This document shows, one piece after another, positions 2,943 through 30,034 of a stretch of DNA of 64,000 nucleotides. Each line of letters opens with the position of its first letter. Positions within the stretch are counted from its first letter, which is position 1. Below the pieces are notes generated by a model that made no database searches, was not told where the DNA came from, and worked only from the letters and a program-made list of their open reading frames with translations. Made by a program: the position numbers and the translations under genes. Source of the DNA: Patescibacteria group bacterium (GTDB lineage: Bacteria > Patescibacteriota > Patescibacteriia > Patescibacteriales > WJLG01); assembly GCA_028707065.1 (NCBI GenBank), contig JAQTUZ010000003.1, positions 2,501 through 66,500 of the forward strand, in the 5' to 3' direction.

Positions 2943-4619
2943 ATGGTTAGTCCGCATTTAACCAAAAAGAAAAGCGAAATACTGACAGTTACTTTAGGCA
3001 CCCGAAAACTTTTCCAGACCGTTTATCGCGAACAGAGCCAGGAGGTGAAAGAAAACGAAGGCGAAGCCAAGATAAAAGTTTCGGCGCTGATCTCCAAGGT
3101 CGCTTTTTATTACGAGAAGGTCCGCAATTACGTCGATTATAATGAAGAGCATCTGCACCGCAAGTACGCGGTGGCCCGCATTTTAAAACGGCAATTGGTC
3201 ATCGAAGGCGCGGTGAAGATCACCAATAGCGAAGAAACGTCGCGCAATCTTCTGACCGAATTGATCCGCGCCGGCTATCTGCCCAATGACAAGATCCCCG
3301 AAGGCAAGATCGATGAAGTGAAAGCGATCCTGGAAAAACATTTGCGCCTGCGCGAACTGGCGATGCCGCACGGGATCACGGCTCAGATGGCCAAGCTGGT
3401 CACCAAGGAAAAAAGAGAATTGGGCGATTGGCTGATCGGTATTGCCGCTTCCGAGATCGAGTCGATTTTGGAAGTGGACAAAATCAAAGAGATGGTGATC
3501 AGCAATATGTACGAATATCTGGTCAAATTCATCAAGCTGCCGGTCAATTTCGCCGTTTACGAAAAAGATCTGCCCATTCAAATTTATTTAAGCATCTACC
3601 GCACTTATTTAAAGTTCGACCGCTCGATGCTGTCCTTCATAATTTTTAAATATTATAACGCTGACTGGTGGAACCCGACCGAAGAAACTACGGCTAAGAT
3701 CGCCGCCAATATTCTGCCCTTGCGGCAGGCGATCGAGCGGCAGCTTGATCACCCGCTGGTCAAACAATTGGATAAGATCATCAACAAATACACGGTTTTT
3801 TATTCGATCCTCACCGATATGATCAAAGAAGACCCGGCGTCGCTTTATGAGACGATCAAGAGCAAGCCGCAGGTTTTTCCCGATCTGGTGAAAAACAATT
3901 TTCAAAAAAAATTTAATGTGACCAAGGCCCGCCTTTGGCGCGCCGGCGTCAATAGCATTATTTACATCTTCTTGACCAAGACGATCTTCGCGGTCTTACT
4001 GGAAATTCCGGCGACAAAATATCTGGGCGAAGAGATCAATCCTTATTCTTTGGCGGTTAATATTTTATTCCCGCCCTTCTTATTGCTTTTAGTGATTTTG
4101 TTCACTCGAGTTTCTTCGGAAGAAAATAACAAGCGCGTGGTGGCCGGGGTGGACGAAATAACTTTTGAGGAAAAGAACCGCCGCGATCCGATCGTCTTGC
4201 GCAAACCGACCATCAGGGGTCCGGTCATCAGCTTTATTTTCAGCCTGCTTTACTCGCTGACCTTTTTGGTTTCTTTCGGCGCGGTCGTTTGGGCCTTGGA
4301 TAAGATCCACTTCACCTGGGTGAGCATCACCATCTTCTTGTTCTTCTTGGCTTTTGTCAGTTTCTTTTCGATCCGCATCCGCAAAAGCGTCCAGCAATTG
4401 ATCGTCATCGAAGAAAGGGAAAATCTGCTCGATTTTCTGCTTGATTTTTTCTTCATCCCGATCGCGGCCGTGGGCAAATGGCTGTCAAAAAAGTTCGCCA
4501 AGATCAACGTCTTTATGTTCCTGATGGATTTCGTGATCGAAGCGCCGTTCAAAGTCTTCGTCGAGATCGCCGAGCAGTGGACGAAATATGTCAGGGAAAG
4601 GAAGGAGGATATCGAATAA
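2943..4619 (+). CDS. Large hypothetical membrane protein (558 aa)
   Basis: Long ORF with a soluble helical N-terminal half and several TM helices in the C-terminal half. No family recognised with confidence. Confidence 0.75.
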   Translation: MVSPHLTKKKSEILTVTLGTRKLFQTVYREQSQEVKENEGEAKIKVSALISKVAFYYEKVRNYVDYNEEHLHRKYAVARILKRQLVIEGAVKITNSEETSRNLLTELIRAGYLPNDKIPEGKIDEVKAILEKHLRLRELAMPHGITAQMAKLVTKEKRELGDWLIGIAASEIESILEVDKIKEMVISNMYEYLVKFIKLPVNFAVYEKDLPIQIYLSIYRTYLKFDRSMLSFIIFKYYNADWWNPTEETTAKIAANILPLRQAIERQLDHPLVKQLDKIINKYTVFYSILTDMIKEDPASLYETIKSKPQVFPDLVKNNFQKKFNVTKARLWRAGVNSIIYIFLTKTIFAVLLEIPATKYLGEEINPYSLAVNILFPPFLLLLVILFTRVSSEENNKRVVAGVDEITFEEKNRRDPIVLRKPTIRGPVISFIFSLLYSLTFLVSFGAVVWALDKIHFTWVSITIFLFFLAFVSFFSIRIRKSVQQLIVIEERENLLDFLLDFFFIPIAAVGKWLSKKFAKINVFMFLMDFVIEAPFKVFVEIAEQWTKYVRERKEDIE

Positions 4620-4626
4620 TTTGAAA

Positions 4627-4722
4627 TGTAATACTAATCCACGAATACATACTAATATAACGAATAATAATTTAGAACGCATTCGTCATATTAGTATGTA
4701 TTCGTATTAAATTAGTATTACA
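4627..4722. repeat. Three-tier near-perfect hairpin built from acgaat/attcgt and actaat words
   Basis: tgtaatactaat (4627-4638) pairs with attagtattaca (4711-4722). acgaatacatactaatat (4641-4658) pairs with atattagtatgtattcgt (4688-4705). An inner acgaat/attcgt pair completes the stem. Confidence 0.85.
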
Positions 4723-4729
4723 ATAAAAT

Positions 4730-5446
4730 ATGCTTTATATAGTAGGAACGCCGATCGGCAACTTGGAAGATATCAGTATGCGCGCCATAAGAATCCTCGG
4801 CGAGGTGGATTTTATTTTGTGCGAAGACACGCGGACGTCAGGCGTTTTGCTCGAGCATTATAATATCAAGACGCCGCGCATTTCTTATCATCAGCATTCG
4901 GAAGATATCAAGGTCGATCAGATCATTAAATTATTAGAGCAGGGGAAGAATCTGGCGCTGATCACTGATGCGGGCACGCCGGGAATTTCCGATCCGGGTG
5001 GTGTTTTAGTTTCTAAAGTGATCGAGCATTTTGGCGAAGATATGAAGATCGAATCCGTGCCCGGCCCTTCGGCGGTCACGGCGGCGTTATCTATTTCCGG
5101 CATTCCGACCGACAAGTTTATTTTTATGGGTTTCCCGCCGCATAAAAAAGGCCGGCAGACATTTATTAAAAGAATTTTGGCCAGCGAATATCCTGTGGTC
5201 GTTTATGAATCCAAACACCGCATCGTCAAATTTTTGAATGAATTAAAAGCGATGAAAGAAAGCGCCAGCATTTCCGATGAAGAAGAAATTAAAAATAAGA
5301 AAAAAAATCTTGAATCAGTCGTGGTCGCGCGCGAACTTTCCAAAATGCACGAAACCGTCTATCGCGGCGATATTGATAATATAATTGCCAAAATAACCGC
5401 CACCCCGGACGACCAGCGCGGCGAATTTGTCGTAATCGTCGGCTAA
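4730..5446 (+). CDS. rsmI: 16S rRNA (cytidine1402-2'-O)-methyltransferase
   Basis: The N-terminus MLYIVGTPIGNLEDISMRAIRILGEVDFILCEDTR and DAGTPGISDPG are typical of the RsmI tetrapyrrole-methylase fold. Confidence 0.9.
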   Translation: MLYIVGTPIGNLEDISMRAIRILGEVDFILCEDTRTSGVLLEHYNIKTPRISYHQHSEDIKVDQIIKLLEQGKNLALITDAGTPGISDPGGVLVSKVIEHFGEDMKIESVPGPSAVTAALSISGIPTDKFIFMGFPPHKKGRQTFIKRILASEYPVVVYESKHRIVKFLNELKAMKESASISDEEEIKNKKKNLESVVVARELSKMHETVYRGDIDNIIAKITATPDDQRGEFVVIVG

Positions 5447-5452
5447 ACAAGT

Positions 5453-5498
5453 CCCCTCTAGAGAGGGGTGGCTCGCGCCGCGTGAGACGGGGTGTGTT
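5453..5498. repeat. GC-rich two-hairpin repeat unit (family A, forward orientation)
   Basis: cccctctagagaggggtggctcgcgccgcgtgagacggggtgtgt. Other copies lie at 6371, 9048, 10507-10662, 11055, 13284 and 35540. Confidence 0.85.
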
Positions 5499-5558
5499 AC
5501 ATAATTTAAAATAATTAACATTAAAAAAATATAAATTTTATGGCTTTCAAAGAACAAT

Positions 5559-5789
5559 TTGCCCCCCTTGGCGGCAGAAAAGGGTCCCGGTAATATTGAT
5601 GAAAAAATACTCAAAAAAACTCCAGCTCCCGGCGCCGCCGGATTGACTTGGGGCGAACTTTATGAACATGCCGCCGCGGAAAACGAGTTAAAATCAGGAG
5701 AAGATTTTTTCTCCTATGTCCGACGGTTAAAAAAACTTTGGGAAGAAGAAGACGACAAACCGAGCGCTCCGGTAAGCAAAGCCGCCTAA
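5559..5789 (+). CDS. Small hypothetical protein; start uncertain (TTG at 5559, or ATG at 5540 via a poly-C frameshift)
   Basis: ORF of 76 aa. An ATG at 5540 is in a different frame and would join this frame if the C6 run at 5562-5567 were C5. Confidence 0.3.
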   Translation: MPPLAAEKGPGNIDEKILKKTPAPGAAGLTWGELYEHAAAENELKSGEDFFSYVRRLKKLWEEEDDKPSAPVSKAA

Positions 5790-5793
5790 TATT

Positions 5794-6381
5794 ATGAATA
5801 TCGAATACGAAGCGACATTTTTAAATATAGACAAGGAAGAAGCGAGAGAGCGATTAAAAAAGGCCGGCGCCAAATTGGTCAAGCCGGAAATTTTGATGAA
5901 GCGCTGTAATTTTACTTTGCCGAAAAATAACGAGATCGCCGGCAGCTGGGTCAGGGTGCGCGACGAGGGCGATAAAATTACCATGAGCGTTAAAATAATG
6001 ACCGGCGATAAGATCGAAGATCAGAAAGAGATTTGTCTTTCGGTTGATGAAATGGAAAAAGCGATCGATTTTTTGGAAACTCTGGGTTGCCGCAAAAAAT
6101 CCTATCAGGAAACTAAGCGGGAAACTTGGGAATTGGACAGCGTAATAATCACTTTGGATACCTGGCCGTTTTTGGAGCCGTTTGCCGAAGTTGAAGGTCA
6201 GTCCGAGCAGACTGTTAAGAGTGTAAGCGAAAAGATCGGTTTTGATTATACGCAAGCGCGTTTTTGCGCCGTCGGCACTCTTTATCATGAGAAATATAAA
6301 ATCCCGCAAGACGTTATCAATAACCATACGCCGGAAATAACTTTTGCCAAAAACCCATTTATAAATAATTCCCCTCTATAA
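5794..6381 (+). CDS. CYTH-domain protein (CyaB/ThTPase-like)
   Basis: The opening IEYEATFL (ExExK-like start of the CYTH fold), the later VRVRDEG..ITMSVK and the ~190 aa size fit the family. Confidence 0.7.
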   Translation: MNIEYEATFLNIDKEEARERLKKAGAKLVKPEILMKRCNFTLPKNNEIAGSWVRVRDEGDKITMSVKIMTGDKIEDQKEICLSVDEMEKAIDFLETLGCRKKSYQETKRETWELDSVIITLDTWPFLEPFAEVEGQSEQTVKSVSEKIGFDYTQARFCAVGTLYHEKYKIPQDVINNHTPEITFAKNPFINNSPL

Positions 6382-6419
6382 AGAGGGGTGGACTCGCGCC
6401 GCGCGAGGACGGGGTGTGT
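6371..6419. repeat. GC-rich two-hairpin repeat unit (family A, forward)
   Basis: cccctctataaagaggggtggactcgcgccgcgcgaggacggggtgtgt. It overlaps the last codons and stop of the CYTH gene. Confidence 0.85.
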
Positions 6420-6425
6420 AAAAAA

Positions 6426-7415
6426 ATGAAAGCTATGAATAATTCTATCGAATTTCCCGAACAGACAAAATCTCTTTCCTATCTTGATCGCGAAGAAGAC
6501 TGGGAGCAGAAAATCAAAGAAACTATCGCATTATACGATTGGGGTATTGTTGATCTTTTGCATGAAGATGAATCTAAAAAGATTGAAAAAAAATTGGCCT
6601 TCGCGGATATTCCCGCGGCCGAGCAAGCGGCTTACGCTGAAACTGCCGGACGATTGGCGCTTGGTTTGATGAATTTTGGCGGTATGCGCGCCAGTTTGAC
6701 CGAAGAAAAGTCAAGATTTGAAATGATTATGCTCCGTGGTAAAATTTCCGGTCATAATCCCGATTTGGAGCCGTTTTTGCATATGCTCTGTCTGCATTTG
6801 GCCCGCGAGGCTGATACTAATACTACCGGAGATTCATCCCGCGTATTTTCTGAAGTCATAACCGACGCCGCCGTAAATGCGGCCCGAGCCGGCAAGCCGG
6901 AATTGCATGATTCGCTGATCAACCCGTTTCATTTGGAAACTGGCATGGAAATATTAAAATTCAACGAAAAAACCGGTGAGGCGGAGAAAATGACGATTGA
7001 AACGCTGATCGAAAACGGCGACGGCATCATTTTCTTCGGCAAAGGCGAGAATGATTATGAGGATATCATTACTTTCAACCGGAAATTATCGCTGGGCGAA
7101 TATGTGAAAAAAGATAGCGAGAATTATTTTGGCGGCGCAGGCTATCTTAAAGAAAAATTCAACTTGGATAAATTGGTACCGGGAACCGTGATAAAAATCG
7201 ATGCCAGCCATCCATTGAGCAAGGAACAGATAACCGAGGAAGTCACGGTCGTTAAAAGCAATCAGGCCGAATTGGAAGAGCAATACGGTCCGGCCTGGCT
7301 GGCTTTTCTGGATCACGCTCCCCGAAACAAAAAATTGCTTACCGTCAGTATGAGGTCGGCTACCGGGGAGATTTTTGAGGATGTTAATTTTATGACTTTG
7401 AAAATCGTCGAATAA
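6426..7415 (+). CDS. Hypothetical protein (329 aa)
   Basis: Long ORF. The ATG at 6426 is preferred to the GTG at 6414, which lies inside the repeat. No family recognised. Confidence 0.7.
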   Translation: MKAMNNSIEFPEQTKSLSYLDREEDWEQKIKETIALYDWGIVDLLHEDESKKIEKKLAFADIPAAEQAAYAETAGRLALGLMNFGGMRASLTEEKSRFEMIMLRGKISGHNPDLEPFLHMLCLHLAREADTNTTGDSSRVFSEVITDAAVNAARAGKPELHDSLINPFHLETGMEILKFNEKTGEAEKMTIETLIENGDGIIFFGKGENDYEDIITFNRKLSLGEYVKKDSENYFGGAGYLKEKFNLDKLVPGTVIKIDASHPLSKEQITEEVTVVKSNQAELEEQYGPAWLAFLDHAPRNKKLLTVSMRSATGEIFEDVNFMTLKIVE

Positions 7416-7430
7416 TTTATCTAGTTTGTC

Positions 7431-7497
7431 ATTTTCGCGAATGCGGAAATCCAAGATTGAGCGCACGGAATCTGGATCCCCGCATTCGCGGGGATGA
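7431..7497. repeat. Long GC-rich hairpin repeat (gtcat..cgcgaatgcgg / ccgcattcgcg..gatgac type)
   Basis: tcgcgaatgcgg pairs with ccgcattcgcg around a second inner stem. Confidence 0.7.
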
Positions 7498-7510
7498 CTG
7501 AATAAAATTT

Positions 7511-8038
7511 ATGACCGTCAAGGAGGCTATTCAAAAAAGACGCAGTATCCGGAAATATCAGAATAAGGAAATTCCGGCGGAAATAATTGATGAGTTGCTG
7601 GAAGCGGCGCGCTGGGCGCCGTCGGCGCGGAATGTCCAGCCCTGGGCATTTAAAGTGGTGACGGGCGCCGAAGATAAAGCCAAGCTGAAAGAGAATCATG
7701 TTTTTATGCGGGATTTTGTTTATGACGCGCCGGCGATAATCATCTGCTGCGTCACCGAGGAAGATTATCCCAAAGATAAATTTCAAGCCGGCATGCAAGC
7801 CACGTTTGATAAATGGTCAATGATCGATATCGGCCTGGCGACGGAAAATATATTATTGCAAGCCACTGAACTTGGTTTAGGCGGTTGCGTCGTCGGGATG
7901 ATCGATATGGAAAAAATAAAATCAGTTCTGAATATCCCGGAAAAATATTTTATCCCATATGTTGTTCCTATAGGCTATCCCGACGAAACCCCGGCACCGA
8001 CGCCAAGGAAAAGTTTGGAAGAAATAACCATGAATTAA
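7511..8038 (+). CDS. Nitroreductase family protein
   Basis: RRSIRKYQNKEIPAEIIDELLEAARWAPSARNVQPW is the classic nitroreductase N-terminal signature. Confidence 0.9.
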   Translation: MTVKEAIQKRRSIRKYQNKEIPAEIIDELLEAARWAPSARNVQPWAFKVVTGAEDKAKLKENHVFMRDFVYDAPAIIICCVTEEDYPKDKFQAGMQATFDKWSMIDIGLATENILLQATELGLGGCVVGMIDMEKIKSVLNIPEKYFIPYVVPIGYPDETPAPTPRKSLEEITMN

Positions 8039-8044
8039 AAGTAT

Positions 8045-8809
8045 ATGGAAAAATTCATTAAGCAGATAACAAAAGAAGCGGGCGCTGCTATTCTGAAAAA
8101 ATTTGGGAAAGTGGGCGTTACGCATACAAAAGAAAATGCAGCAGATGTCGTTACCGAAGCTGATTTATTGGCAAATAATATTATTATCAGAGCCATTAAA
8201 AAGAAATATCCATCCCACGCGATAATATCCGAAGAAACAGGCGAACATCAAAACGGCGCTGAATATTGCTGGATTATCGATCCGTTAGACGGTACGCGTA
8301 ATTTCCTTACCAGGACTCCGATGTTCGCGGTAATGATCGGCCTCGCCCATAATGGAAAGATGGAATTAGCCACTATCTATAACCCATGCACGGATGAATT
8401 ATTTTTTGCGAAAAAGGGGGAAGGTACGTTTTTAAATGGAAAAAAGGTTCGTTGCTCACAGCATAAGACATGGGAGAACAGCTGGGGACTTACAAGCGCT
8501 AGAATGTCAAAAAATAACGTAGCTAATTTGCGTAAATTATTAAAGCATTCGGAGAAGGAAGAATTTTGGATGAGCGCTTTGGGATCAGCCGGGGTTAGTG
8601 TTATGTATCAGGCAGATGGCAGAAGAGATTGGCGGGCTTCGCAAGGCGGAGGGTTGTGGGATTACGCCGCTGCTTCGCTAATTCTTGCGGAGGCGGGATG
8701 TAAAGTCACTAATTTTAAAGGCGAGCCCTGGTCTATAAAAGATAGAGAGATTTTGTCGGCGAATAAATATCTTCATTCTAAATTATTGAAGATTATGAAT
8801 TCCGAATAA
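8045..8809 (+). CDS. Inositol monophosphatase family protein
   Basis: IISEETGE and WIIDPLDGTRNF metal-binding motifs of the IMPase/SuhB family. Confidence 0.85.
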   Translation: MEKFIKQITKEAGAAILKKFGKVGVTHTKENAADVVTEADLLANNIIIRAIKKKYPSHAIISEETGEHQNGAEYCWIIDPLDGTRNFLTRTPMFAVMIGLAHNGKMELATIYNPCTDELFFAKKGEGTFLNGKKVRCSQHKTWENSWGLTSARMSKNNVANLRKLLKHSEKEEFWMSALGSAGVSVMYQADGRRDWRASQGGGLWDYAAASLILAEAGCKVTNFKGEPWSIKDREILSANKYLHSKLLKIMNSE

Positions 8810-8823
8810 TTAACGTTAATTTT

Positions 8824-8886
8824 GCCGTGCTAGAGTCCGCTTTGCCTGCCCTGAGCTTGTCGAAAGAGGCGGAGACTGCGCCGGAA
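8824..8886. repeat. GC-rich repeat (module family A2, reverse orientation)
   Basis: ...ccctgagcttgtcgaaagaggcggagactgcgccggaac is paralogous to 9125-9180. Confidence 0.65.
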
Positions 8887-9047
8887 CAAAAGTTTGCAGA
8901 AGGTCTGGTAGCTGGTATTTAGTAGTTGAGTCTTTTTGTCATCCTGAGCGCCGCGCGAAGGATCTATTAAGTAAAAATTGAATTTAGATTTAATTATCTT
9001 ATAACTGCCGTTGGTTGCATTATAAAAAATAATAATGTCAGGAATAG

Positions 9048-9093
9048 ACCCACCCCGTCTCGCGAGGCGCGAGCCACCCCTCCCAAGAGGGGA
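9048..9093. repeat. GC-rich two-hairpin repeat unit (family A, reverse)
   Basis: acccaccccgtctcgcgaggcgcgagccacccctcccaagagggga. Confidence 0.85.
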
Positions 9094-9124
9094 ATAAAAA
9101 AAGTTGAAGAAATAATTAATCTCG

Positions 9125-9180
9125 GCGCAGTTCCGACTTGTCCCGAGCTTGCCGAGGGAGGCGGAGACTGCGACGGAACC
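9125..9180. repeat. GC-rich repeat (module family A2, reverse)
   Basis: gcgcagttccgacttgtcccgagcttgccgagggaggcggagactgcgacggaacc. Its reverse complement shares ccgcctc...ggacaagtcgg with the pgk and metG inserts. Confidence 0.7.
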
Positions 9181-9303
9181 AATCTATCTCCGAGAAATAT
9201 TCTCTCAGGAATGAAATCCTATAATTAAGGCGGTAGAAATTAGGACATAAAGCGATTTATAGTCGCCGCGAGGTGCGACTTCTATGAATGACAAAATAAA
9301 ATT

Positions 9304-9750
9304 ATGAATTTTACAGAAATAATAAATGCTCGCGGAATTGTAGCAAATAAATTCGTCTCCATTGAGGGGTTGGTGGCGGTTATAATCTGCTTGCATTATT
9401 TAAAAAGAGTTGACAATAAATTTATATTAAATGTTTTAAAAAATGAGCTATCGTCCTTTGGTCTTTGTAAAAGTGTTTTAAAATTAATTATTGATAATAA
9501 AAAAAATGGCGACGAACTACAAAATTTAGAAAAATTAAATCGTATTCGTAATATTTTTAGTCATTCTGTTATTAGTGGCGATTCGGGCCAATCGAATGGT
9601 GATATTATGAATGCTAGTTTCGTTAATCATAAAGACTTGGATAAAAAAATTAATGCCGAAGAAATGCTTAAGGAATTTAATTCTTTATACGATTCAACTA
9701 TTGAGTGGTTAATGAAAATTTTCGAAGAAAAAGGAGGTAATTTTAAATAA
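9304..9750 (+). CDS. Hypothetical protein (148 aa) with an RNxxxH motif; possible minimal HEPN-like domain
   Basis: AT-rich orphan ORF. LEKLNRIRNIFSHS contains R-N-x3-H, the Rx4-6H signature of HEPN RNases. The sequence looks all-helical by eye. Confidence 0.55.
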   Translation: MNFTEIINARGIVANKFVSIEGLVAVIICLHYLKRVDNKFILNVLKNELSSFGLCKSVLKLIIDNKKNGDELQNLEKLNRIRNIFSHSVISGDSGQSNGDIMNASFVNHKDLDKKINAEEMLKEFNSLYDSTIEWLMKIFEEKGGNFK

Positions 9751-9782
9751 TTTATAATTCATAATTTATAATTTGTAATTGA

Positions 9783-11384
9783 ATGTCCAAGTTTTATATC
9801 ACCACCACCCTTCCTTACGTCAATGCCGAGCCGCATATCGGGTTTGCGGCGGAGATTATCAAGGCGGATTGTTTAGCCAGATGGCACACGTTGCTGGGCG
9901 ACGAGGTATTCTTTAATACCGGTACCGATGAGCACGGGCAGAAGATCTATGAGAAGGCCAAAGAGGCTGGCATTGATCCGCAAACTTATTGCGATGAATA
10001 TGCGGCAAAATTCCGCAGCTTGAAAGAGCTGTTGAATTTAAGCGTGACTAATTTTATCAGGACGACCGATGAAAAACATATCAAAGCGGCGCAGGCTTTT
10101 TGGAAGCTCTGCGAGGCTAACGGTGATATTTATAAAAAGGATTACAAGATTAAATATTGCGTGGGCTGCGAGCTGGAAAAAACCGATTCGGAATTGGTAA
10201 ACGGCTGCTGCCCGTTACATCCGAACAAAGCTTTGGAAGAAATAAACGAAGAAAATTATTTCTTTAAATTTTCAAAATATCAACAACCGCTTTTGGATTT
10301 GTATAAAAATAATCCTGATTTTGTGAAGCCGGAAGAACGCGCTAATGAGATCAAGTCTTTTGTGGAAAGGGGATTGCAGGATTTTTCTATCTCCCGCCTG
10401 GCCACGAAAATGCCTTGGGGGATTCCGGTGCCGGGCGATGAGACGCAAGTGATGTACGTCTGGTTTGATGCGTTGGTTAATTATATAAGTTGTCTCGGAT
10501 GGCCGGATACAAACCACCCCCAGACCCCTCCTTCGGAAGGAGGGGGGCTGACACACCCCGCCTCGCCGGGCTCGGCACCCCTCTCGAGAGGGGACTTTGA
10601 CACACCCCGCCCTTCCACCCAAGGCGGACAAGTCGGCACCCCTCTTGATAGAGGGGACTTATTTAGTGAGTATTGGCCAGGATTACAGGTTTGCGGCAAG
10701 GATAATTTAAGGCAGCAGACCGCAATGTGGCAGGCAATGTTAATGTCGGCGGGATTGCCTAATTCCAAACAGGTTTTGGTTTTTGGTTTTATTACCGTGA
10801 ACGGACAAAAAATGTCTAAGTCGTTGGGGAATGTTGTTAATCCAGCAGAGATGGTGGTGAAATACGGACTTGATGCGACAAGATATTATCTTTTGAAAGA
10901 GATCAAACCTTTCGCTGATAGTGATTTTTCCTGGGAAAAGATGAATTTACTTTATACGGCCGACTTGGCCAACGGCATTGGAAATTTAGCCGCGCGTGTT
11001 TCAACTCTGCTCGAAAAAAATCAGATCGAAACTGTTTTGCTTACACCAACCATAACACACCCCGTCCGCCCAGGGGGCGTCCACCCCTCTCAAGAGGGGA
11101 CTTTTGCCGCATTCGCGGAGAAGATGGAACAATATGCCTTTGACGAAGCTTTGGGAGTATTATGGAAAAAAATTGCCGAGTGCGACGTAACCCTCACCGA
11201 AAAAAAGCCTTGGAAAATGGAAGACAAGGCGGAAATTAAAAAAGTCCTCGAGCCGATCGCCCAGGAAATATTGAATATTGCTTATTTACTGGCGCCTTTT
11301 ATGCCGGAAACTTCGGAAAAAATTATCAAGCAATATTCGGAAACGCAAATTAAAAAAAGCGATTCGTTATTCCCCAGAATCTAA
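9783..11384 (+). CDS. metG: Methionyl-tRNA synthetase, carrying in-frame repeat insertions
   Basis: TTTLPYVNAEPHIGFA (HIGH region), KMSKSLGN (KMSKS), and the anticodon-domain tail. Confidence 0.95.
   Translation: MSKFYITTTLPYVNAEPHIGFAAEIIKADCLARWHTLLGDEVFFNTGTDEHGQKIYEKAKEAGIDPQTYCDEYAAKFRSLKELLNLSVTNFIRTTDEKHIKAAQAFWKLCEANGDIYKKDYKIKYCVGCELEKTDSELVNGCCPLHPNKALEEINEENYFFKFSKYQQPLLDLYKNNPDFVKPEERANEIKSFVERGLQDFSISRLATKMPWGIPVPGDETQVMYVWFDALVNYISCLGWPDTNHPQTPPSEGGGLTHPASPGSAPLSRGDFDTPRPSTQGGQVGTPLDRGDLFSEYWPGLQVCGKDNLRQQTAMWQAMLMSAGLPNSKQVLVFGFITVNGQKMSKSLGNVVNPAEMVVKYGLDATRYYLLKEIKPFADSDFSWEKMNLLYTADLANGIGNLAARVSTLLEKNQIETVLLTPTITHPVRPGGVHPSQEGTFAAFAEKMEQYAFDEALGVLWKKIAECDVTLTEKKPWKMEDKAEIKKVLEPIAQEILNIAYLLAPFMPETSEKIIKQYSETQIKKSDSLFPRI
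10507..10662. repeat. Three stacked family-A/A2 repeat units inside the metG reading frame
   Basis: acacaccccgcctcgccgggctcggcacccctctcgagaggggactt, then acacaccccgcccttccacccaaggcggacaagtcggcacccctcttgatagaggggactt, preceded by a partial unit. Confidence 0.85.
11055..11104. repeat. Single family-A repeat unit inside the metG reading frame
   Basis: acacaccccgtccgcccagggggcgtccacccctctcaagaggggactt. Confidence 0.85.
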
Positions 11385-11518
11385 GCGCCCCCTCCCGCCA
11401 CCCCCGGCCATTCCTCAGACAGGAGGGGAGGCTGATCATAATTGTTATTAGCCGGGATTATTGATATAATTATAAGCAGTTAAAATAAATAATTTATTCA
11501 TCTAAGTGATAAAAAAAT

Positions 11519-12745
11519 ATGAAAAAACTTTTTTTAGACGGTTTACTGGTCGCTGTTTTGGCGGTTTTTTCATTGGCGATTTGCGGCAACCGCGCTTTAG
11601 CGCAAGATAATTATGAAATAGCTTCGGCAACCACCACTCCGGCGGCTATTAATTTATACAACACGGACAATCCGGCCGTGGTGGGATGGAACGCGACAGG
11701 TACGGACAACCAAGGATTCAAGGTTGTCTGGTCAAAAAATGCCAACCCGACTTATCCCATCCGCTATGGCGATCACGTTGATAATATTCCCAGCGCCAGC
11801 GCGCATACTGATACTTTAACCGCCTTTTTGGGCAATGGAACTTATTTTGTGCGGGTTTGCAATCTGGTCAGCAATACTTGCGGAGTTTATTCCAATCAGA
11901 TCACGGTTCAATTCGGCGTGCCCGCAATCCCGGCCACTTCCACGACTCCGGTCGCCACTTCCACGCCGGTGGCGTGCAATATGATCTATGCTCCGGTTTG
12001 CGGCGCGGACGGACAGACTTATACTAACAGTTGTTTTGCCGATGCGCATAAGGTGACGGTTAAATCTAACGGCGCTTGCCCGGCCGTGGCGACGACGACG
12101 CCGGTTATTGCCACCACCACCCCGGTTTTATCGCCGGTTTCGGACATCGACAAGATCAATCAAAGCGCCGAGGATCTTTATCAAAATAAGATCGGCAATA
12201 TTTTGGGCCGGCTCGATACGGCGGTCGATCAGGCCAAGGAACAACAGGCGCAAAATAATTATTTGACCAAGCTGGAGCAGGGATTGGCCCAGCCGATCTC
12301 CGCGGCGAGCGCCAACTCGGTCACCGCTTTTATCGCTTACGGGGTTGATGCTAATACGCAACTTCTTGGCTCGGGACAGCGCGCGGCAGCGGTTTATTCT
12401 TTCAAGCAAGCTTATGGCAAATTGCCGACCGCTCAAGCTGATTTTGCCGATCTCATCAAGATCGCCAATGGCCGCTGGCCGTCAGTGACTTCCGCAACTG
12501 CCGAAGCGCTGGCCAAGGCGCAATTCAAGAAAATTTATCTGCGCGATGCCGATCTGAATAATCCGCATGACGCGGCCGCGATCGTGATAATCGCTTACGG
12601 TTTGCAGCAGCAGGCGAAAAACAGGAATCTAAAATCAGAAGCGGCGGCCCTGCATACTTTTAAAGCGATCTTCAATCGCTTGCCCTCGGGCACGGTTGAT
12701 TGGAATACTTTGGGAGCCATAACTTATTCAGGATCAACGAGATAA
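11519..12745 (+). CDS. Secreted protein with a Kazal-type domain
   Basis: Signal peptide (LLVAVLAVFSLAICGNRALA). CNMIYAPVCGADGQTYTNSCFADAHKVTVKSNGAC matches the Kazal C-x-PVCG-x-G-x-TY-x-N-x-C pattern. Confidence 0.75.
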   Translation: MKKLFLDGLLVAVLAVFSLAICGNRALAQDNYEIASATTTPAAINLYNTDNPAVVGWNATGTDNQGFKVVWSKNANPTYPIRYGDHVDNIPSASAHTDTLTAFLGNGTYFVRVCNLVSNTCGVYSNQITVQFGVPAIPATSTTPVATSTPVACNMIYAPVCGADGQTYTNSCFADAHKVTVKSNGACPAVATTTPVIATTTPVLSPVSDIDKINQSAEDLYQNKIGNILGRLDTAVDQAKEQQAQNNYLTKLEQGLAQPISAASANSVTAFIAYGVDANTQLLGSGQRAAAVYSFKQAYGKLPTAQADFADLIKIANGRWPSVTSATAEALAKAQFKKIYLRDADLNNPHDAAAIVIIAYGLQQQAKNRNLKSEAAALHTFKAIFNRLPSGTVDWNTLGAITYSGSTR

Positions 12746-12764
12746 TTTTTAATTTTAATATAGC

Positions 12765-13280
12765 ATGTCTAATTTTGACATTATTTTGATCGCGATGCTG
12801 GCCATCTGCGCTTTGCGCGGCTTGACCACCGGTCTGATCAAAGCCGTGGGCGCGTTCCTGGGGATTATCGGCGGCGCTTTTTTTGCCAGCCATTTTTATC
12901 TGGTTTTATTCGCGGCGACGCAAAAATGGTATGGCGGCTACGACAACATCGGCAAAGTCGTTTCTTTTATTATTATCTTCGTGGTCCTGGCCTGGGCGAT
13001 CCATATTCTGTTCATTGTTTTGGATAAGACTTATAATCTGCTCTCGATCATTCCGTTCATGAAATCGATCAATCGCCTGGCGGGCGGAATTCTCGGGCTA
13101 TTGGTCGGGGCGATCATCCTCGGCTTATTGATCTATGTCGTGGCGAAATACGCGCCGGCCGGAACCATGGTCGGCAACTGGCTCTTGACTTCGAAGGTGG
13201 CCCCCTGGCTCTTGGGAATAGCAAAAATTTTAATGCCGTTGCTTTCGGGAAGTTTGAAAAGTATTGAGTCGATAATTTAA
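12765..13280 (+). CDS. CvpA-family membrane protein
   Basis: The opening FDIILIAMLAICALRGLTTGLIK and four TM helices are typical of colicin V production protein homologs. Confidence 0.7.
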   Translation: MSNFDIILIAMLAICALRGLTTGLIKAVGAFLGIIGGAFFASHFYLVLFAATQKWYGGYDNIGKVVSFIIIFVVLAWAIHILFIVLDKTYNLLSIIPFMKSINRLAGGILGLLVGAIILGLLIYVVAKYAPAGTMVGNWLLTSKVAPWLLGIAKILMPLLSGSLKSIESII

Positions 13281-13283
13281 TTG

Positions 13284-13405
13284 GAAACCCACCCCGCCTC
13301 GCTCACGCTCGGCACCCCTCCCGGGGAGGGGAATAAAATGGAAACCCACCCCCAACTTCGCTCCGCCGAACGGAGCTACGATGGACAAGCCGGGGAAGGG
13401 GATAA
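13284..13405. repeat. Two tandem GC-rich repeat units (family A, then A2)
   Basis: aaacccaccccgcctcgctcacgctcggcacccctcccggggaggggaat, then aaacccacccccaacttcgctccgccgaacggagctacgatggacaagccggggaagggga. Confidence 0.8.
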
Positions 13406-13409
13406 AAAT

Positions 13410-14000
13410 GTGAAAATTATTAAAATTAATCGCCATAAAGTTTCCGCGCAAGAAATCGGCCTAATCGTCGATTTTTTGAAAAAGGGAAAAACGATCGTTT
13501 ACCCGACCGACACGATCTACGGTCTGGGTTGTTCGGCGACCGATAAAAAGGCAATTGACAAAATTCGCCGGATGAAAAAAAGGGACAAGAATAAACCGTT
13601 TTTGATTTTGATTGCCGATTTTAAAATGGTACATAAATATTTTAAAGTGGATAAAAAACAGGCAAGTTATTTGCGGAAAATTTGGCCGGGAAAAGTATCG
13701 GTAATTTTAAATAAAAAATCAGCGTTGCCCGGCTATGTTTCCGCGGGTTTGGCCAGCGCGGCGGTGCGTTTGCCAAAGAGCGAATTTCTTACTAAAATGA
13801 TTAAAGAACTAAAGCAACCGATCGTTTCCACCAGTTTGAATAAAAGCGGTCAGCTGCATCTTGTCCGAGTCGCGGATTTAACCAATTATTTTACCGTGAC
13901 CAAACCGGATTTGATCGTCGATGCCGGCACGATCAATGGCAAACCTTCGAAATTGATCGACTTAAGGGATGCGGCTAAAATAAAAGTTTTGAGAAAATAA
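13410..14000 (+). CDS. tsaC: L-threonylcarbamoyladenylate synthase (TsaC/YrdC family)
   Basis: IVYPTDTIYGLGCSATDKKAIDKIRRMKKRDKNKPFLIL is the YrdC signature. The GTG at 13410 is preferred because the in-frame upstream 129 nt (from TTG 13281) is entirely repeat sequence. Confidence 0.85.
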   Translation: MKIIKINRHKVSAQEIGLIVDFLKKGKTIVYPTDTIYGLGCSATDKKAIDKIRRMKKRDKNKPFLILIADFKMVHKYFKVDKKQASYLRKIWPGKVSVILNKKSALPGYVSAGLASAAVRLPKSEFLTKMIKELKQPIVSTSLNKSGQLHLVRVADLTNYFTVTKPDLIVDAGTINGKPSKLIDLRDAAKIKVLRK

Positions 14001-14055
14001 TCAATTAGTAAATTACGGGCGCTGATAAGTTTTTCATCAGTCCCTGACCGGATTA

Positions 14056-15396
14056 ATGTTCAATTTTTTAAAATTTTTCCAAAAAAAGCAAAGAGAAGGG
14101 GAACTGGCCGCCAGGCATCATTTTGTCCGCCAGGCGATACTGGTTGTTTTGGTTATAATTTTATTATTTGTTTCTTTCGCCGCCGGAATGTACGCCACCG
14201 GCAAGAATAAACTGATCGCCGTTTTGGCCAGCAAAGAAACCGTTTATCTGGGCAAGATCACCGGCAAATATCAGCAAGATACGGGCGGGCGCTTGTCGCA
14301 GGATATTGATTTTAATTTGTATTGGGAAGTTTGGGATGCCTTAAAAGCCAGATATGTCGATAAGGACAAGCTCAATGAAAAGGAAATGTTTTACGGTTCC
14401 TTGCGCGGCTTGGCCGCGTCATTGGGCGATCCTTATACCGTGTTTTTCGACCCTAAGGATTCGCAAACTTTTGCCAATGATCTGTCCGGAACTTTCGAAG
14501 GCATCGGCGCCGAAGTCGGCTTGCGCAATGACGCGATCACCATTATCGCGCCGCTCTCGGGAATGCCGGCGGAAAAAGCCGGCATCAAGGCCGGCGATAC
14601 GATCATTGCCATTAATGGTTCTTCAACTTTGAATATGACGATCGATCGGGCGGTGGAAAGGATCCGCGGCCCCAAGGGAACAAGGGTGACGCTGACGATT
14701 TTCCGCCAGGGATTCAAGGAAACCAAGGATATTTCGATCATCCGCGACGTCATTTATGTCAAAAGCGTGAAGACCGAATTCAGATCGGATAAAATTTTTG
14801 TCATCACTGTTTCCAATTTCAATGAAGACACCGCCGGTCTTTTTGAGAACGCCGTGCAAGAAGCGGTTAAGGACAAGCCGAAAGGCTTGGTTGTTGATTT
14901 GCGCAATAATCCCGGCGGCTTTTTGGATTCGGCGATCAGCCTGGCCTCCGAGTGGGTGCCTTCGGGCAAGCTGGTGGTGAGCGAAAAATCGACCGATCCG
15001 GCCGAGAATGGCCAATATGATTCTTCGGGCATCCAGCATTTGCGCGATTATCCCACGGTCGTTCTGGTCAACGGCGGATCGGCTTCGGCCTCGGAAATAT
15101 TAGCCGGCGCGCTTAAGGATTACGGTTTGGCTAAAGTTGTGGGCGAAAAAACTTACGGCAAAGGTTCGGTGCAGGCCCTGGAATCCTTGAGCGATGGTTC
15201 GATGATCAAGATCACCGTGGCCAAATGGTACACGCCCAACGGCTATTCGATCGATGAGCAGGGGATTACGCCTGATATCACGGCCACCACTTCCGAAGCG
15301 GCCTTTAACGCCGGTAAAGACCCGCAATTAGACACAGCGGTTAATATTTTACTGGGTAAAAGCACTTCCACGCCGGGTACGGCAACCAAAAAATAA
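14056..15396 (+). CDS. S41-family C-terminal processing peptidase with PDZ domain
   Basis: N-terminal TM segment, PDZ domain (GIKAGDTIIAINGSS), LRNNPGG, and GGSASASEILAGAL containing the catalytic Ser. Confidence 0.9.
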   Translation: MFNFLKFFQKKQREGELAARHHFVRQAILVVLVIILLFVSFAAGMYATGKNKLIAVLASKETVYLGKITGKYQQDTGGRLSQDIDFNLYWEVWDALKARYVDKDKLNEKEMFYGSLRGLAASLGDPYTVFFDPKDSQTFANDLSGTFEGIGAEVGLRNDAITIIAPLSGMPAEKAGIKAGDTIIAINGSSTLNMTIDRAVERIRGPKGTRVTLTIFRQGFKETKDISIIRDVIYVKSVKTEFRSDKIFVITVSNFNEDTAGLFENAVQEAVKDKPKGLVVDLRNNPGGFLDSAISLASEWVPSGKLVVSEKSTDPAENGQYDSSGIQHLRDYPTVVLVNGGSASASEILAGALKDYGLAKVVGEKTYGKGSVQALESLSDGSMIKITVAKWYTPNGYSIDEQGITPDITATTSEAAFNAGKDPQLDTAVNILLGKSTSTPGTATKK

Positions 15397-15397: not shown

Positions 15398-15851
15398 TTA
15401 GTTGATTAGTTAATTGGTTAATTAGTTTTTATGGGGAGGGGCTTAGAAAAATTAAAGATATACAGACTGTCGGTTCGCTTAGAAATTTTTGTTCACCGCG
15501 TAGTTAATGAAAAATTTCCCGAGGAAGAAAAATATCGCAGCTCTGACCAATTAAAAAGATCGTCATCTTCTTCGTCTGACAATATCGCTGAAAGCTACGG
15601 CAAATTTTCTTTTGGCGCTAAAATAAATCATTTATACATTGCGAGGGGAGAAATGGCGGAAACGAAAAGCGGAATTGAAAGAGCGTATTTAAAAGGTTTC
15701 ATTTCCGAAGAATTGGCAGAATTCACGGTCAATAAATATACGGAACTAATTAAGCAAACCAATTGCTATATCAATTTTTTAAAACATAAAAAAATTAAAT
15801 AGTTGAACTGGTTTATTCTAAAACTAATTAACCAATTAACTAATTAACTAA
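15398..15851. mobile_element. Compact cassette: a four-helix-bundle gene bracketed by 30-bp inverted repeats
   Basis: IR-L at 15398-15427 is ttagttgattagttaattggttaattagtt. The reverse complement of IR-R at 15822-15851 is ttagttaattagttaattggttaattagtt (29/30 identical). The cassette starts 2 nt after the ctp stop and ends 1 nt before the pyrG ATG. Confidence 0.55.
15431..15802 (+). CDS. Four-helix-bundle protein (23S rRNA intervening-sequence protein / Avd-like family)
   Basis: LKIYRLSVRLEIFVHRV, QLKRSSSSSSDNIAESYG and YIARGEMAETKSGIERA follow the pattern of the family often annotated S23 ribosomal / four helix bundle protein. Confidence 0.8.
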   Translation: MGRGLEKLKIYRLSVRLEIFVHRVVNEKFPEEEKYRSSDQLKRSSSSSSDNIAESYGKFSFGAKINHLYIARGEMAETKSGIERAYLKGFISEELAEFTVNKYTELIKQTNCYINFLKHKKIK

Positions 15852-21034: not shown

Positions 21035-21829
21035 TTAAAATTCTAGATAGCTTTTTTCGTCAGCCGGAAATTCAAAGTGTTTGAATATGCTTGTTATTTT
21101 AATATTATCTGAAAAAATATTGGCGGACAATGATTTTCTCAAGTCATTTATTGAGAAATCATTTTTGGTTATTTCTTTGAGTCTTTTTACAATAATCTGC
21201 GCGGCCCTTTCCGTGATAGGGGAATTAAAATTCTTCTTCCTGCGCTGGTAACTGAAAAAAAGATATTGGTCGCATTTAATATTATTTTTTAAACAAAAAT
21301 TAAATATTGTTTTCAGAAGTTTTTTATTTAATATTATAATTTTACCGCCAATATTTATCCAGTCATTTTTTACGTTACCAAGTTTAATTTTTATAAGTTC
21401 CTTGGTTTTTAAGCCAGTTTCATATAGCATCATTATCAATAAATTATCTCTTTCGGCTGTTACTTTGTCGTTTTTCAAAATAATGCTCGATAAATTGTCT
21501 ATATTTTCCACTCGTTTAAAATTTTTCTTCCCTGCCCTTTCGATTGGTATATTTTTTATTTCTATTGTTACGCCCTTGGTCTCCTTTAAAAAATCGCAAT
21601 ATTTTAAAATAGCATAGATATATGAATTCTTACTTTGCTTTGATTTTCCAGTAGTATATTCGGTAATAAAATTCAAAAAGTTTTTTTCGGGAAAATTAAA
21701 ATAATTAATTTTTTCTCTTGCCAGGTAAGCCAAAAATTTATTTATTGAAATAAAATAATTCGATATAGTATTATGTTTATATCCCTTAGCCTTGAGCCAA
21801 GCAATAAATCCATCTAGTATTATTTTCAT
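21035..21829 (-). CDS. Divergent tyrosine recombinase (XerC/D-like fold, HxxR His replaced by Asn)
   Basis: N-terminal SAM-like core-binding region (FIAWLKAKGYKHNTISNYFISINKFLAYL). AERDNLLIMMLYETGLKTKEL carries the Arg-I block. INDLRKS replaces HxLRH. The tail IFKHFEFPADEKSY aligns by eye with LLGHESLDTTTRY. Very AT-rich. Confidence 0.65.
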   Translation of the reverse strand: MKIILDGFIAWLKAKGYKHNTISNYFISINKFLAYLAREKINYFNFPEKNFLNFITEYTTGKSKQSKNSYIYAILKYCDFLKETKGVTIEIKNIPIERAGKKNFKRVENIDNLSSIILKNDKVTAERDNLLIMMLYETGLKTKELIKIKLGNVKNDWINIGGKIIILNKKLLKTIFNFCLKNNIKCDQYLFFSYQRRKKNFNSPITERAAQIIVKRLKEITKNDFSINDLRKSLSANIFSDNIKITSIFKHFEFPADEKSYLEF

Positions 21830-22305
21830 AAATTAAATTCTAATAAATAATCGTCAGACGGGACAAGCATTATTTTGCAATTTTTTAAGAAAGATAAATT
21901 CAAATAAAGTTTATATAAGTTGGTAGTGCCGACTTCTATAAATACATTCTTATCGGTCCCGAGGTCGGCTCGTCCATAATATAATGCCGGTTCTTTCTCG
22001 ACTTTTATGCCATTGGTTAGAAAATATTTTTCTATGGTCGAGATAAGATCGTTATGCCAATTTCCTCCGTGTTTTTTCAAATTATCAGTATTAAGATTGT
22101 TTTTCGCCTGCCAAATAGAATTATTTAGATAAGAAATTTTTTTTAACTTCATTTTCCCTGAAACAATAAAAATGGCGATTTTTCTCAATAAGCAATATTC
22201 GCATTTTATCGGATCGTTTTGTTCGAAAGGGGATTGGGAAATATTGTTTTTAAGAAATTCAATTTCATCGGAGATCGCTTTTTCCGCTTCATTCCAATCG
22301 ATCAT
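21826..22305 (-). CDS. Hypothetical protein (159 aa) with a PD-(D/E)xK-like core
   Basis: YYGRADLGTDKNVFIEVGTT resembles the G-x-(P)D ... (D/E)-V-K-T strand pair of restriction-endonuclease-like folds, but Gly sits in the Lys position. It overlaps the downstream gene by 4 nt. Confidence 0.5.
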   Translation of the reverse strand: MIDWNEAEKAISDEIEFLKNNISQSPFEQNDPIKCEYCLLRKIAIFIVSGKMKLKKISYLNNSIWQAKNNLNTDNLKKHGGNWHNDLISTIEKYFLTNGIKVEKEPALYYGRADLGTDKNVFIEVGTTNLYKLYLNLSFLKNCKIMLVPSDDYLLEFNL

Positions 22306-22309
22306 AAAA

Positions 22310-29498: not shown

Positions 29499-29542
29499 AA
29501 TATTTTAAAGTATAAATTTATTTAACTAATTGGCCAATCAAC

Positions 29543-30016: not shown

Positions 30017-30034
30017 AGCTAAAATTATAAATTA

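Follow-up and report, generated by a model that had tools for sequence, protein, structure and literature searches.

The 64-kb window analyzed here (64,000 nucleotides of contig JAQTUZ010000003.1) is part of a metagenome-assembled contig from Patescibacteria, the Candidate Phyla Radiation (CPR), and contains metG, the gene for methionyl-tRNA synthetase (MetRS). The metG product is 100% identical to the NCBI entry 'methionine--tRNA ligase [Patescibacteria group bacterium]', carries the Pfam domain tRNA-synt_1g and matches MetRS structures in the PDB at E = 1e-107. An initial annotation, made from the nucleotide sequence, drew attention to GC-rich palindromic repeats at 10507-10662 that lie in frame inside this gene and that are otherwise found between genes. 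The nature, distribution and probable origin of these repeats are the subject of what follows.

Repeat units in metG and in the rest of the window

Inspection of metG shows the repeats to be as they were first described. The open reading frame (ORF) passes through them with neither a stop codon nor a frameshift and yields exactly the peptide that had been quoted, DTNHPQTPPSEGGGLTHPASPGSAPLSRGDFDTPRPSTQGGQVGTPLDRGDL. The block that encodes this peptide has a GC content of 0.65, compared with 0.44 for metG, and a folding energy of -67.5 kcal/mol. It lies, as stated in the annotation, between the conserved blocks VWFDAL..GWP and YWPG..GKDN, where solved MetRS structures have about 3 residues. We refer to this position as site 1. 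The estimate of about three consecutive units also stands, since units A, B and C can be recognized there (Table 1), but a fourth in-frame unit had been missed. This unit occupies a second position, site 2, in a loop of the anticodon-binding domain, 3' of LEKNxIETxL.

Table 1. Positions of metG, of its in-frame repeat units and of the other repeat copies in the window. E values are those of the family hidden Markov model.
Feature	Position	Strand	Description
metG (methionyl-tRNA synthetase), host gene	9783-11384	+	533 aa, ORF intact
Site-1 in-frame insertion block	10506-10661	+	156 nt = 52 codons (DTNHPQ...LDRGDL), straight after conserved LGWP
Unit A, site 1	10507-10550	+	head AACCACCCCCA and perfect palindrome CCCCTCCTTC/GAAGGAGGGG; peptide TNHPQTPPSEGGGL
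Unit B, site 1	10551-10598	+	full unit, first hairpin decayed; peptide THPASPGSAPLSRGDF; E = 9e-7
Unit C, site 1	10600-10660	+	full unit; peptide DTPRPSTQGGQVGTPLDRGDL; E = 7e-6
Extra 18-nt segment CACCCAAGGCGGACAAGT	10616-10633	+	within hairpin-1 loop of unit C
Site-2 in-frame unit	11055-11102	+	48 nt = 16 codons; peptide THPVRPGGVHPSQEGT; E = 1.6e-7
Intergenic unit	5449-5498	-	starts 3 nt past TP_methylase stop, antisense to flanking genes; E = 2e-8
Unit between CYTH gene and next gene	6367-6419	-	E = 1.8e-7
Intergenic unit	9048-9095	+	upstream of 148-aa ORF and metG; E = 5e-9, best-scoring copy
Intergenic unit	13286-13334	+	starts 5 nt past colicin V production gene stop
Composite unit	13342-13400	+	family-1 head ACCCACCCCC and tail GGGGAAGGGGA flanking family-2 core CTTCGCTCCGCCGAACGGAGCTACGATGGACAAG
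Intergenic unit	35536-35583	-	between divergent genes, 24 nt upstream of rpmE (ribosomal protein L31); E = 1e-8
Family-2 in-frame segment in gyrB	45131-45166	+	within gyrB 43367-45403; sequence GCTTCGCCGGGCGAAGCTACGGCGGACAA; variable loop ahead of a conserved block
Family-2 in-frame insert in pgk	51638-51697	-	within pgk 50678-51898; 20 residues, SLRTASASAKVTADKSAGKP

A full unit consists of ACACACCCCG, a GC hairpin, CCACCCCTC, a loop of 4-6 nt and then GAGGGGA(C/A)TT. Expressed as conserved elements, there is a 5' box, (A)AC-CACCCCG, a second box with its hairpin, CCACCCCTC(C)-loop-(G)GAGGGG, and a 3' A(A/C)T. The units in the window are 44-61 nt long, with about 45 nt being typical, and most of them form two short adjacent hairpins with folding energies well under those of shuffled controls. 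The head and the second hairpin are conserved across copies while the stem of the first hairpin varies with its pairing kept, as in CTCGCG/CGCGAG, CGCCG/CGGCG, TCTGCG/CGCAGA, CTCGCC/GGCGAG and GCCC/GGGC. At least 64 different hairpin-1 stems were present among 129 distinct units. Four or more pairs, not counting the closing G-C, can form in 49% of the spacers, compared with 10% after shuffling. Among 32 units that align without gaps, 98.6% of the cells pair, and double-sided changes number 16, compared with 4.6 in shuffled sets, the observed value being reached by none of 500 shuffles. The 3' end is AAT in 82 of the 129 distinct units and ..AC precedes most of them. Beyond 2 nt these ends (..AAC and AAT..) contain no inverted repeat, and no unit matched a family in Rfam 15, either when the whole window was searched at the gathering threshold or when 4500-14500 and five viral loci were searched at E <= 1.

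The individual metG units can be compared with those of related loci. Unit A is a variant that does not possess the first hairpin; it differs at 2 of 39 nt from its counterpart at the same place in locus L084, and a peptide resembling that of unit A, NHPQTPPSKGGE, fills site 2 of the MetRS P0022. The L084 counterpart of unit B retains an intact stem, CTCGCC/GGCGAG. Alignment shows unit C to be an ortholog of the sole unit of loci L001 and L002, or a member of the same subfamily (the alignment was to L001). The 18-nt segment at 10616-10633 is missing from the L001 unit; its sequence is similar to the 3' portion of another repeat family, family 2 (..ACGGCGGACAAG). If translated, the inserts would give peptides such as the tryptic GDFDTPRPSTQGGQVGTPLDR, GDLFSEYWPGLQVCGK with insert sequence before it, and one from site 2 that contains THPVRPGGVHPSQEGTFAAFAEK.

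A hidden Markov model (HMM) of the family detects eight full units in the window, with E values from 5e-9 to 7e-6, and no other sequence in the window scores near them. In total the window holds four units in metG and, between genes, five full units and one composite. The HMM search was a check suggested in the initial annotation and, applied within the window, it establishes that the metG block shares nucleotide homology with the intergenic repeats. All four intergenic copies listed there are real, and the list is extended by those at 13286-13334 and 13342-13400. One of the four, at 6367-6419, is not purely intergenic, because the stop codon of the CYTH gene (6379-6381) falls in the loop of its hairpin 2. 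The last codons (..NSPL) and the TAA stop of this CYTH-domain gene (5794-6381) are in fact supplied by the hairpin-2 arm and loop, so that the repeat appears to have displaced the original gene end. At the junction of the colicin V and Sua5 genes there are 129 nt in the window, including two units, compared with 1 nt in L001. Within this region (13281-13412) the first unit's GGAGGGG is closely followed by an ATG at 13337 that shares the Sua5 frame; a start there could give Sua5 an N-terminus of 24 repeat-encoded residues (METHPQLRSAERSYDGQAGEGDKN), and the conserved start is the GTG at 13410. A match to the head box at 41390 was set aside as an isolated, chance match in coding DNA. Three units in the window were flagged as possible intrinsic terminators. 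This assignment was rejected, because nothing beyond the A(C/A)TTATTT tails led to the flags, and because one of the three belongs to metG and the other two point in the direction opposite to the upstream genes.

Gain and loss among relatives, selection and structure

The initial annotation had proposed that alignment with orthologs would show the site-1 segment to be lineage-specific. This is the case. The 120 closest homologs of the metG product are typically 472-480 aa long, and the nearest relatives (77-80% identity) have 503-524 aa. An alignment of 36 homologs placed the extra length at two points, sites 1 and 2. We then compared 164 MetRS loci from Patescibacteria-like genomes and metagenomes, of which 163 could be scored at site 1. 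The frame is open through site 1 in all 163, and in 113 of them, as well as in L164, the loop is short, with a YVWFDAL-to-GKD spacing of 26 residues. Most of the 164 genes are free of inserts, and about 17 loci, or about 10%, have GC-enriched extra sequence at this site. GC-rich insertions are found only at reference residues ~240-246 and ~372-377 (GC of the inserts 0.59-0.67, that of the gene 0.43-0.46), and length variation elsewhere in the protein is of ordinary composition. The GC-rich inserts at the site-1 codon come from at least 3 repeat families.

Close relatives differ in which units they contain. In L164, which shows the lowest core divergence (Ka 0.15), gene order is the same from the 558-aa gene through pyrG. 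DNA alignment shows that both of its metG sites are empty, and the repeat is absent from the entire 21 kb of this locus. In L001 (JGI) and L002 (ENA), which are independent assemblies, the only unit at site 1 is the match to unit C. L084 contains units A and B at site 1, L004 contains one unit, and in L003 a complete unit is nested in the hairpin-1 loop of another. In a clade at 61% identity, L007 has a single unit at the same codon and its neighbors L006 and L008 are empty. The annotation had envisaged that an unrelated lineage might carry the same peptide encoded by unrelated DNA; in L007 the peptide is encoded by a recognizable copy of the repeat. Site 2 is filled by the same family in L003 and L084 and also, judged from the protein sequence, in P0002, and it is empty in L164, P0020 and P0026. 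A similar pattern holds outside metG, since the unit at 5449-5498 has no equivalent in L164 or L001 and is present at the equivalent position in L003. All of the family-1 units found inside MetRS genes are in the sense orientation.

Three filled/empty comparisons were available, at metG sites 1 and 2 and at the colicin V/Sua5 junction, and no target-site duplication was seen in any of them. No target motif was found in the filled/empty comparisons. At the filled metG sites, 2-4 of the original loop codons have been lost or changed relative to the empty sites. The units are also far better conserved than neutral DNA. Unit C and the L001 unit are identical at 38 of the 39 bases that they share, and the synonymous sites of the two metG genes differ at 65%.

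The host gene itself is maintained. Comparison of metG with L001 and L164 gave a ratio of nonsynonymous to synonymous divergence (Ka/Ks) of 0.07-0.08, with synonymous sites that are nearly saturated (pS 0.65-0.68), and metG is therefore under strong purifying selection. An AlphaFold2 model built from the 36-sequence alignment has a mean predicted local distance difference test score (pLDDT) of 82.5 and a predicted TM score (pTM) of 0.84. The pLDDT drops below 50 only at residues 246-285 and 428-436, which correspond to the two inserts, although low values are partly expected where an insert has no aligned homologs; both regions are modeled as coil and are flanked by well-defined elements. The solved MetRS structures from Brucella (4dlp) and Aquifex (2csx) align with the metG product as two blocks, with a break at residues 245/296 where they have ~3 residues and the metG product has ~50. 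Mapping onto structure, another of the suggested checks, thus places the insertion at a turn of about 3 residues in the solved enzymes. Peptides encoded by the palindromic elements of Rickettsia are predicted to lie at protein surfaces. The metG inserts are low-pLDDT coil, which would fit tolerated surface loops, low confidence being no proof of exposure.

At least 6 insert architectures can be distinguished at site 1, of 51, 54, 57, 93, 99 and 156 nt, and each of them is a multiple of three and free of stop codons. If the segment were removed from the message or bypassed by the ribosome, there would be no need for frame-keeping, stop-free architectures. From this we infer that the insert is translated as part of MetRS.

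Viral contigs, other phyla and other repeat families

To judge from the viral sequences, the element is not private to this lineage. Scanning IMG/VR with the exact pattern CACCCCG-N8-24-CACCCCTC-N3-8-GAGGGG returned 117 matches on 80 contigs, which range in GC content from 0.34 to 0.68. These matches share features that lie outside the search pattern, namely the spacer hairpin, the AAT end and the preceding ..AC. The contigs bear genes for tail sheath, portal, terminase, capsid and Mu-like transposition proteins. Exact-protein look-up traced contigs to Oscillospiraceae, Defluviitaleaceae, Cloacimonadota, Myroides odoratimimus and Acetobacteroides hydrogenigenes, so that the host phyla of the viral-contig copies are Bacillota, Bacteroidota and Cloacimonadota. 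Since the element is shared with tailed and Mu-like phages and with bacteria of other phyla, it has probably spread horizontally. BLAST searches of GenBank phages with the 42-nt consensus and with the whole loci L186 and L204 gave no useful match, and in these searches the low-complexity filter may mask the query.

On the viral contigs 86 units are intergenic, and 20 of these are at most 20 nt from a stop codon. Orientation relative to the flanking genes is mixed; in L201 all three units are antisense and in L186 all three are sense. About 30 units are inside ORFs, a number that depends on crude gene calls and includes some antisense 'intragenic' cases in GC-rich contigs that are probably spurious ORFs. 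Convincing intragenic copies are found in ORFs of 2,770, 2,275, 912 and 720 aa, which contain peptides such as HPAALRHPSMEGN and TPRPQADTPLSEGN. The in-frame phage copies yield HP..HPS.EGN or TP..TPL.EGN peptides, the same signature as that of the MetRS inserts. Phages L169 (9709-9834) and L232 (8775-8858), which are ~85% identical, have inserts at the same spot of the 720-aa ORF. In one phage this is the double-hairpin element and in the other it belongs to a different palindromic family (GGATTCCCGATCGGGTCGGGAATGAC), whose peptides (IPxxxGMT / DSRLRGND) are also seen at both MetRS sites of other CPR lineages. The occupation of one site by several families matches what is seen at metG site 1. 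In another pair of phages, L165 and L192 (95% identical), a unit lies at the edge of a replaced segment. A general role of the unit as a Shine-Dalgarno sequence was considered and rejected, because a separate GGAGG with an ATG lies 10-30 nt past phage copies and many copies are antisense.

The window contains in-frame insertions of a second GC-rich palindromic family with the core CCCGCCTCCGCTGAAGCTACGGCGGGCAAG, which encodes peptides of the ASAEATAGK type. In gyrB the loop that contains such a segment has ~41 residues, compared with ~13 in a solved GyrB. In pgk the insert appears as a clean 20-residue gap in an alignment with the Thermotoga enzyme (1vpe), right after the HLGxP motif. The second family also fills metG site 1 in six other lineages. 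As read from these sequences, in-frame repeat insertion is a general process in this genome.

A different kind of insert is found at the site-1 codon in P0008, P0025, P0032, P0035, P0036 and P0041 (L005, L150, L152), where a Cys-rich segment, CHCERVNKLGAxExxDLxxCxKxEC, is present. It was not counted as a repeat, because its GC content is gene-like and no other DNA copies exist; it is probably a genuine protein feature and may form a small metal-binding knuckle.

Several further repeats and mobile sequences were noted in the window. A gene for a 23S rRNA intervening sequence protein (123 aa, 15431-15802; Pfam PF05635, E = 7e-22) is exactly bracketed by 32-nt AT-rich inverted repeats at 15398-15429 and 15820-15851 that are 97% complementary. 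The gene is missing from L001 and L164, both of them syntenic with the window; the AT-rich repeat appears again at 32621-32733 and also at 29524-29547, and the whole (15398-15851) looks like a small mobile cassette. A third family, situated between genes, is represented at 48636-48781 by two tandem 73-nt units that are 92% identical and contain the hairpin AATAATCCCGCGCCGCGCGGAGATTATT; a related arm is found, inverted, 48 kb away at 118-151. A fourth intergenic hairpin family comprises a pair of 69-nt repeats at 224-292 and 30023-30091 (74% identical) and possibly 9140-9177, with the hairpins ATGCCGAC..GTCGGCAT and CCCGAG..CTCGGG. On a larger scale, the cumulative GC skew climbs to ~20 kb and drops after ~45 kb, and gene orientation changes in this interval from + to -, a combination that suggests a replication terminus. 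Two genes for tyrosine recombinases (264 and 314 aa; 21035-23254, - strand) edge this putative terminus, and a Phage_integrase gene is present in the syntenic L164.

Origin of the metG inserts and comparison with known repeats

We consider it likely that the metG segments are four copies of a small GC-rich double-hairpin repeat, selfish or mobile in nature, that have become fixed in frame at two permissive loops. According to this model, copies would be gained and lost between close relatives, and would insert mostly between genes, often right after stop codons and in either orientation. New copies would land beside or within resident copies, which would explain the three-unit stack at site 1. 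Inside genes, a copy would survive only where a disordered loop of 16-50 residues, rich in Pro, Gly, Thr and Ser, can be tolerated and the frame is kept. The metG units would then be transcribed and translated with the rest of the gene, and would be tolerated rather than needed. We infer both the actual mobility of the element and the neutrality of the inserts in MetRS. As for what might move it, one can only guess at a hairpin-recognizing single-strand transposase like those of REP/RAYT or IS200/IS605.

A number of observations weigh against this model. Pfam detected no transposase in the 10 ORFs that adjoin repeats in the window (CYTH, nitroreductase, L31, Sua5 and intervening sequence proteins were seen). 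When 757 ORFs of the 80 viral loci were clustered, no protein family was shared by more than 10 loci, the commonest clusters being terminase, portal, ClpP, MuB, Mu transposase and DnaB. The element has neither a terminal inverted repeat nor a target-site duplication, and the loss or change of 2-4 loop codons means that the difference between filled and empty sites is not clean. That the insert is translated is read from frame preservation only, and the low pLDDT of the inserts carries the qualification given above. Finally, the units are conserved beyond the neutral expectation, as is evident from unit C and from the maintenance of the boxes across phyla, and all of the family-1 units of MetRS are sense-oriented, which pure neutrality does not predict. 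Conservation of this kind would fit an active or homogenized element, but it would also fit a selected function. Taken with the uniform orientation in MetRS, it keeps alive the alternative that the unit is a functional element.

On that alternative the unit would be a selected cis-acting RNA or DNA element and the metG copies would be kept for this role, which might be that of an mRNA-end stabilizer or weak terminator, a sequestered Shine-Dalgarno/anti-Shine-Dalgarno hairpin, a pause site at a domain boundary, or a 'linker' for recombination between phage modules. Apart from the sense orientation of the metG units and a conservation that far exceeds that of synonymous sites, it draws support from the covariation of the hairpin and the cross-phylum conservation of the boxes, from the many intergenic copies that begin 1-20 nt past a stop codon (20 of 78 on viral contigs; 5449 and 13286 in the window), from the CCTCC/GGAGG composition of hairpin 2, from the terminator-like scores of three window units and from the position of the L165/L192 unit at the edge of a replaced segment. 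A cis-acting role would, however, be difficult to reconcile with the occurrence of units in both orientations relative to transcription, as in L201 and L186. At 5449 and 6367 the terminator-like orientation opposes the upstream genes, and no real U-tract follows. The units are present or absent between close syntenic relatives, L164 being without any, and no Rfam match was obtained. Moreover, in other lineages this metG codon is filled by repeat families of different, unrelated sequence, which argues for a tolerated site and not for a required sequence. We regard this explanation as unlikely. It is similarly doubtful that the copies were pasted by templated repair, gene conversion or template switching from resident GC-rich hairpins, so that recurrence would merely mark fragile or tolerant spots. 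Such a process would account for the lack of target-site duplications, terminal inverted repeats and a linked gene, for the untidy junctions with 2-4 original codons lost, for the two-family composites at 13342-13400 and 10616-10633, for the use of one site by several unrelated families both in metG and in a phage ORF, and for the A-rich sequence beside many sites. Yet the end boxes, conserved across phyla, look like sites that a specific protein would recognize, the copies are as a rule whole units whose ends are precise, and the nested whole unit in L003 resembles an insertion event.

Two other explanations concern the reality of the insert, in the protein or in the genome. The segment might be removed by an intron-like excision or skipped by ribosomal bypassing, of the type known for the T4 gene 60 gap and the yeast mitochondrial 'byp' elements, leaving MetRS without it. 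Some mitochondria bypass inserts of this type, with GC-rich hairpins, in their coding DNA, and the hairpins here are very stable. If this were happening in metG, there would be no reason for the six or more site-1 architectures and the site-2 units all to be stop-free multiples of three, an outcome with a chance of about (1/3)^6; in addition, metG has no pair of take-off and landing codons that match, nor does a stop follow the junction, and to our knowledge no bacterial splicing system handles inserts of ~45 nt. We therefore think excision or bypassing very improbable. An assembly chimera, or a mis-assembled number of repeat copies, is a concern in any single metagenome assembly, since misjoins classically arise at repeats. 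The three units of site 1 are clearly different from one another, however, which makes collapse or expansion unlikely. The A-plus-B arrangement recurs in the independent sample L084, unit C is identical in the independent assemblies L001 and L002, the ORF is open and the flanks are colinear with those of orthologs. An artifact of this kind is hardly credible.

The preferred reading, a double-hairpin repeat that colonizes genes in frame, invites comparison with known systems. The initial annotation had likened the metG repeats to the Rickettsia palindromic elements (RPEs). As described by Ogata et al. (2000) and summarized in PMC10969869 and PMC3184786, these palindromes occur between genes and in frame in unrelated housekeeping genes, whose proteins remain functional. 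The likeness holds for behavior, because the repeat is likewise present in frame in a conserved gene (four units in metG) and between genes (six units). It does not extend to family membership, since the unit is about a third of the size, is built differently and is found in other hosts. RPEs are ~105-146 bp long (PMC3184786), form one long palindrome and are confined to Rickettsia, whereas the present units of 44-61 nt form two short hairpins and are found in Patescibacteria, Bacillota, Bacteroidota and Cloacimonadota and in their phages. The two-hairpin design, the conserved boxes, the free sequence of the first stem and the stacking and nesting of units at one codon are further differences; the separation from RPE-1 to RPE-10 is drawn from these described features and from the host.

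In design the element is closest, by analogy, to REP elements and to the mitochondrial GC clusters and double-hairpin elements (PMC4478555). Like REP/BIME sequences it is a short GC-rich hairpin with a conserved motif 5' of a covarying stem, is dispersed in many copies and in both orientations, often just past stop codons, and offers its hairpin as a target for further insertions. The REP motif is GT[AG]G, compared with (A)AC-CACCCCG here, and REPs are by definition extragenic and are species-specific, whereas 4 of the ~10 units in the window are in metG and others are in phage ORFs. Neither the 10 repeat-adjoining ORFs of the window nor the most frequent clusters of viral-locus proteins include a RAYT (Y1 HUH) gene. 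The mobile GC clusters of yeast mitochondria are small GC-rich hairpins with conserved stems that vary between relatives and move by an unknown mechanism (PMC4478555), and double-hairpin elements are recorded from Allomyces mitochondria (Paquin et al. 2000, as cited in PMC4478555). The shared features are GC-rich units, single or in tandem, in DNA of lower GC content, with variable presence and conserved stems. These elements are organellar, are each restricted to one lineage and, for GC42, use a target dinucleotide; the present repeat belongs to bacteria and phages, with no target motif found. MITE, ERIC, RUP and BRE repeats are non-autonomous and are sometimes fused in frame to genes or contained in them (PMC3184786, PMC10969869), and the present element resembles them as a small repeat that is sometimes within protein genes. 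The units are several times shorter than MITEs, and the terminal inverted repeats, target-site duplications and parent insertion sequence of MITEs are not evident here. PARCELs are coding repeats, likewise palindromic, and their patchy occurrence across phyla suggests horizontal spread, as in the present case, but they are 25-residue amphipathic domains arranged in tandem in surface proteins, and the present unit is a hairpin of non-coding type that also lies between genes. A literature search on palindromic, in-frame, MITE or hairpin repeats of CPR/Patescibacteria, and on the box sequences, yielded within the library searched no description of the element or of such insertions in CPR bacteria.

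A broader proposal can be made, which we advance tentatively and would not yet expect to hold in full. The repeat may represent an undescribed class of double-hairpin elements of ~40 nt, of the form (A)AC-CACCCCG / any-sequence hairpin / CCACCCCTCC-loop-GGAGGGG-AAT, that crosses phyla, is carried by phages, is recognized by a conserved machinery and moves between Patescibacteria, Bacillota, Bacteroidota and their phages, the metG inserts being its earliest noticed members. Together with sister families of the 'ASAEATAGK' and 'IPxxxGMT/RGND' types, this class would repeatedly write disordered loops into the same permissive codons, in essential enzymes as well as in giant phage proteins.

That palindromic repeats can colonize essential genes in frame has been something of a textbook curiosity, tied almost wholly to Rickettsia. 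The same behavior is now found in a Patescibacteria genome, where it affects at least three housekeeping enzymes within 64 kb. It provides a concrete and datable source of the lineage-specific loops that hamper the alignment and annotation of CPR proteins, and a natural experiment that shows where in an aminoacyl-tRNA synthetase 16-50 disordered residues can be tolerated. The repeats also generate spurious ORFs and odd low-complexity peptides in metagenome protein catalogs. Because the element is present in cultured Myroides and Acetobacteroides, an enzyme that recognizes the boxes could be tested for in the laboratory. If the proposed cross-phylum class is real, it would constitute a general route for the birth of protein loops in bacteria with small genomes.

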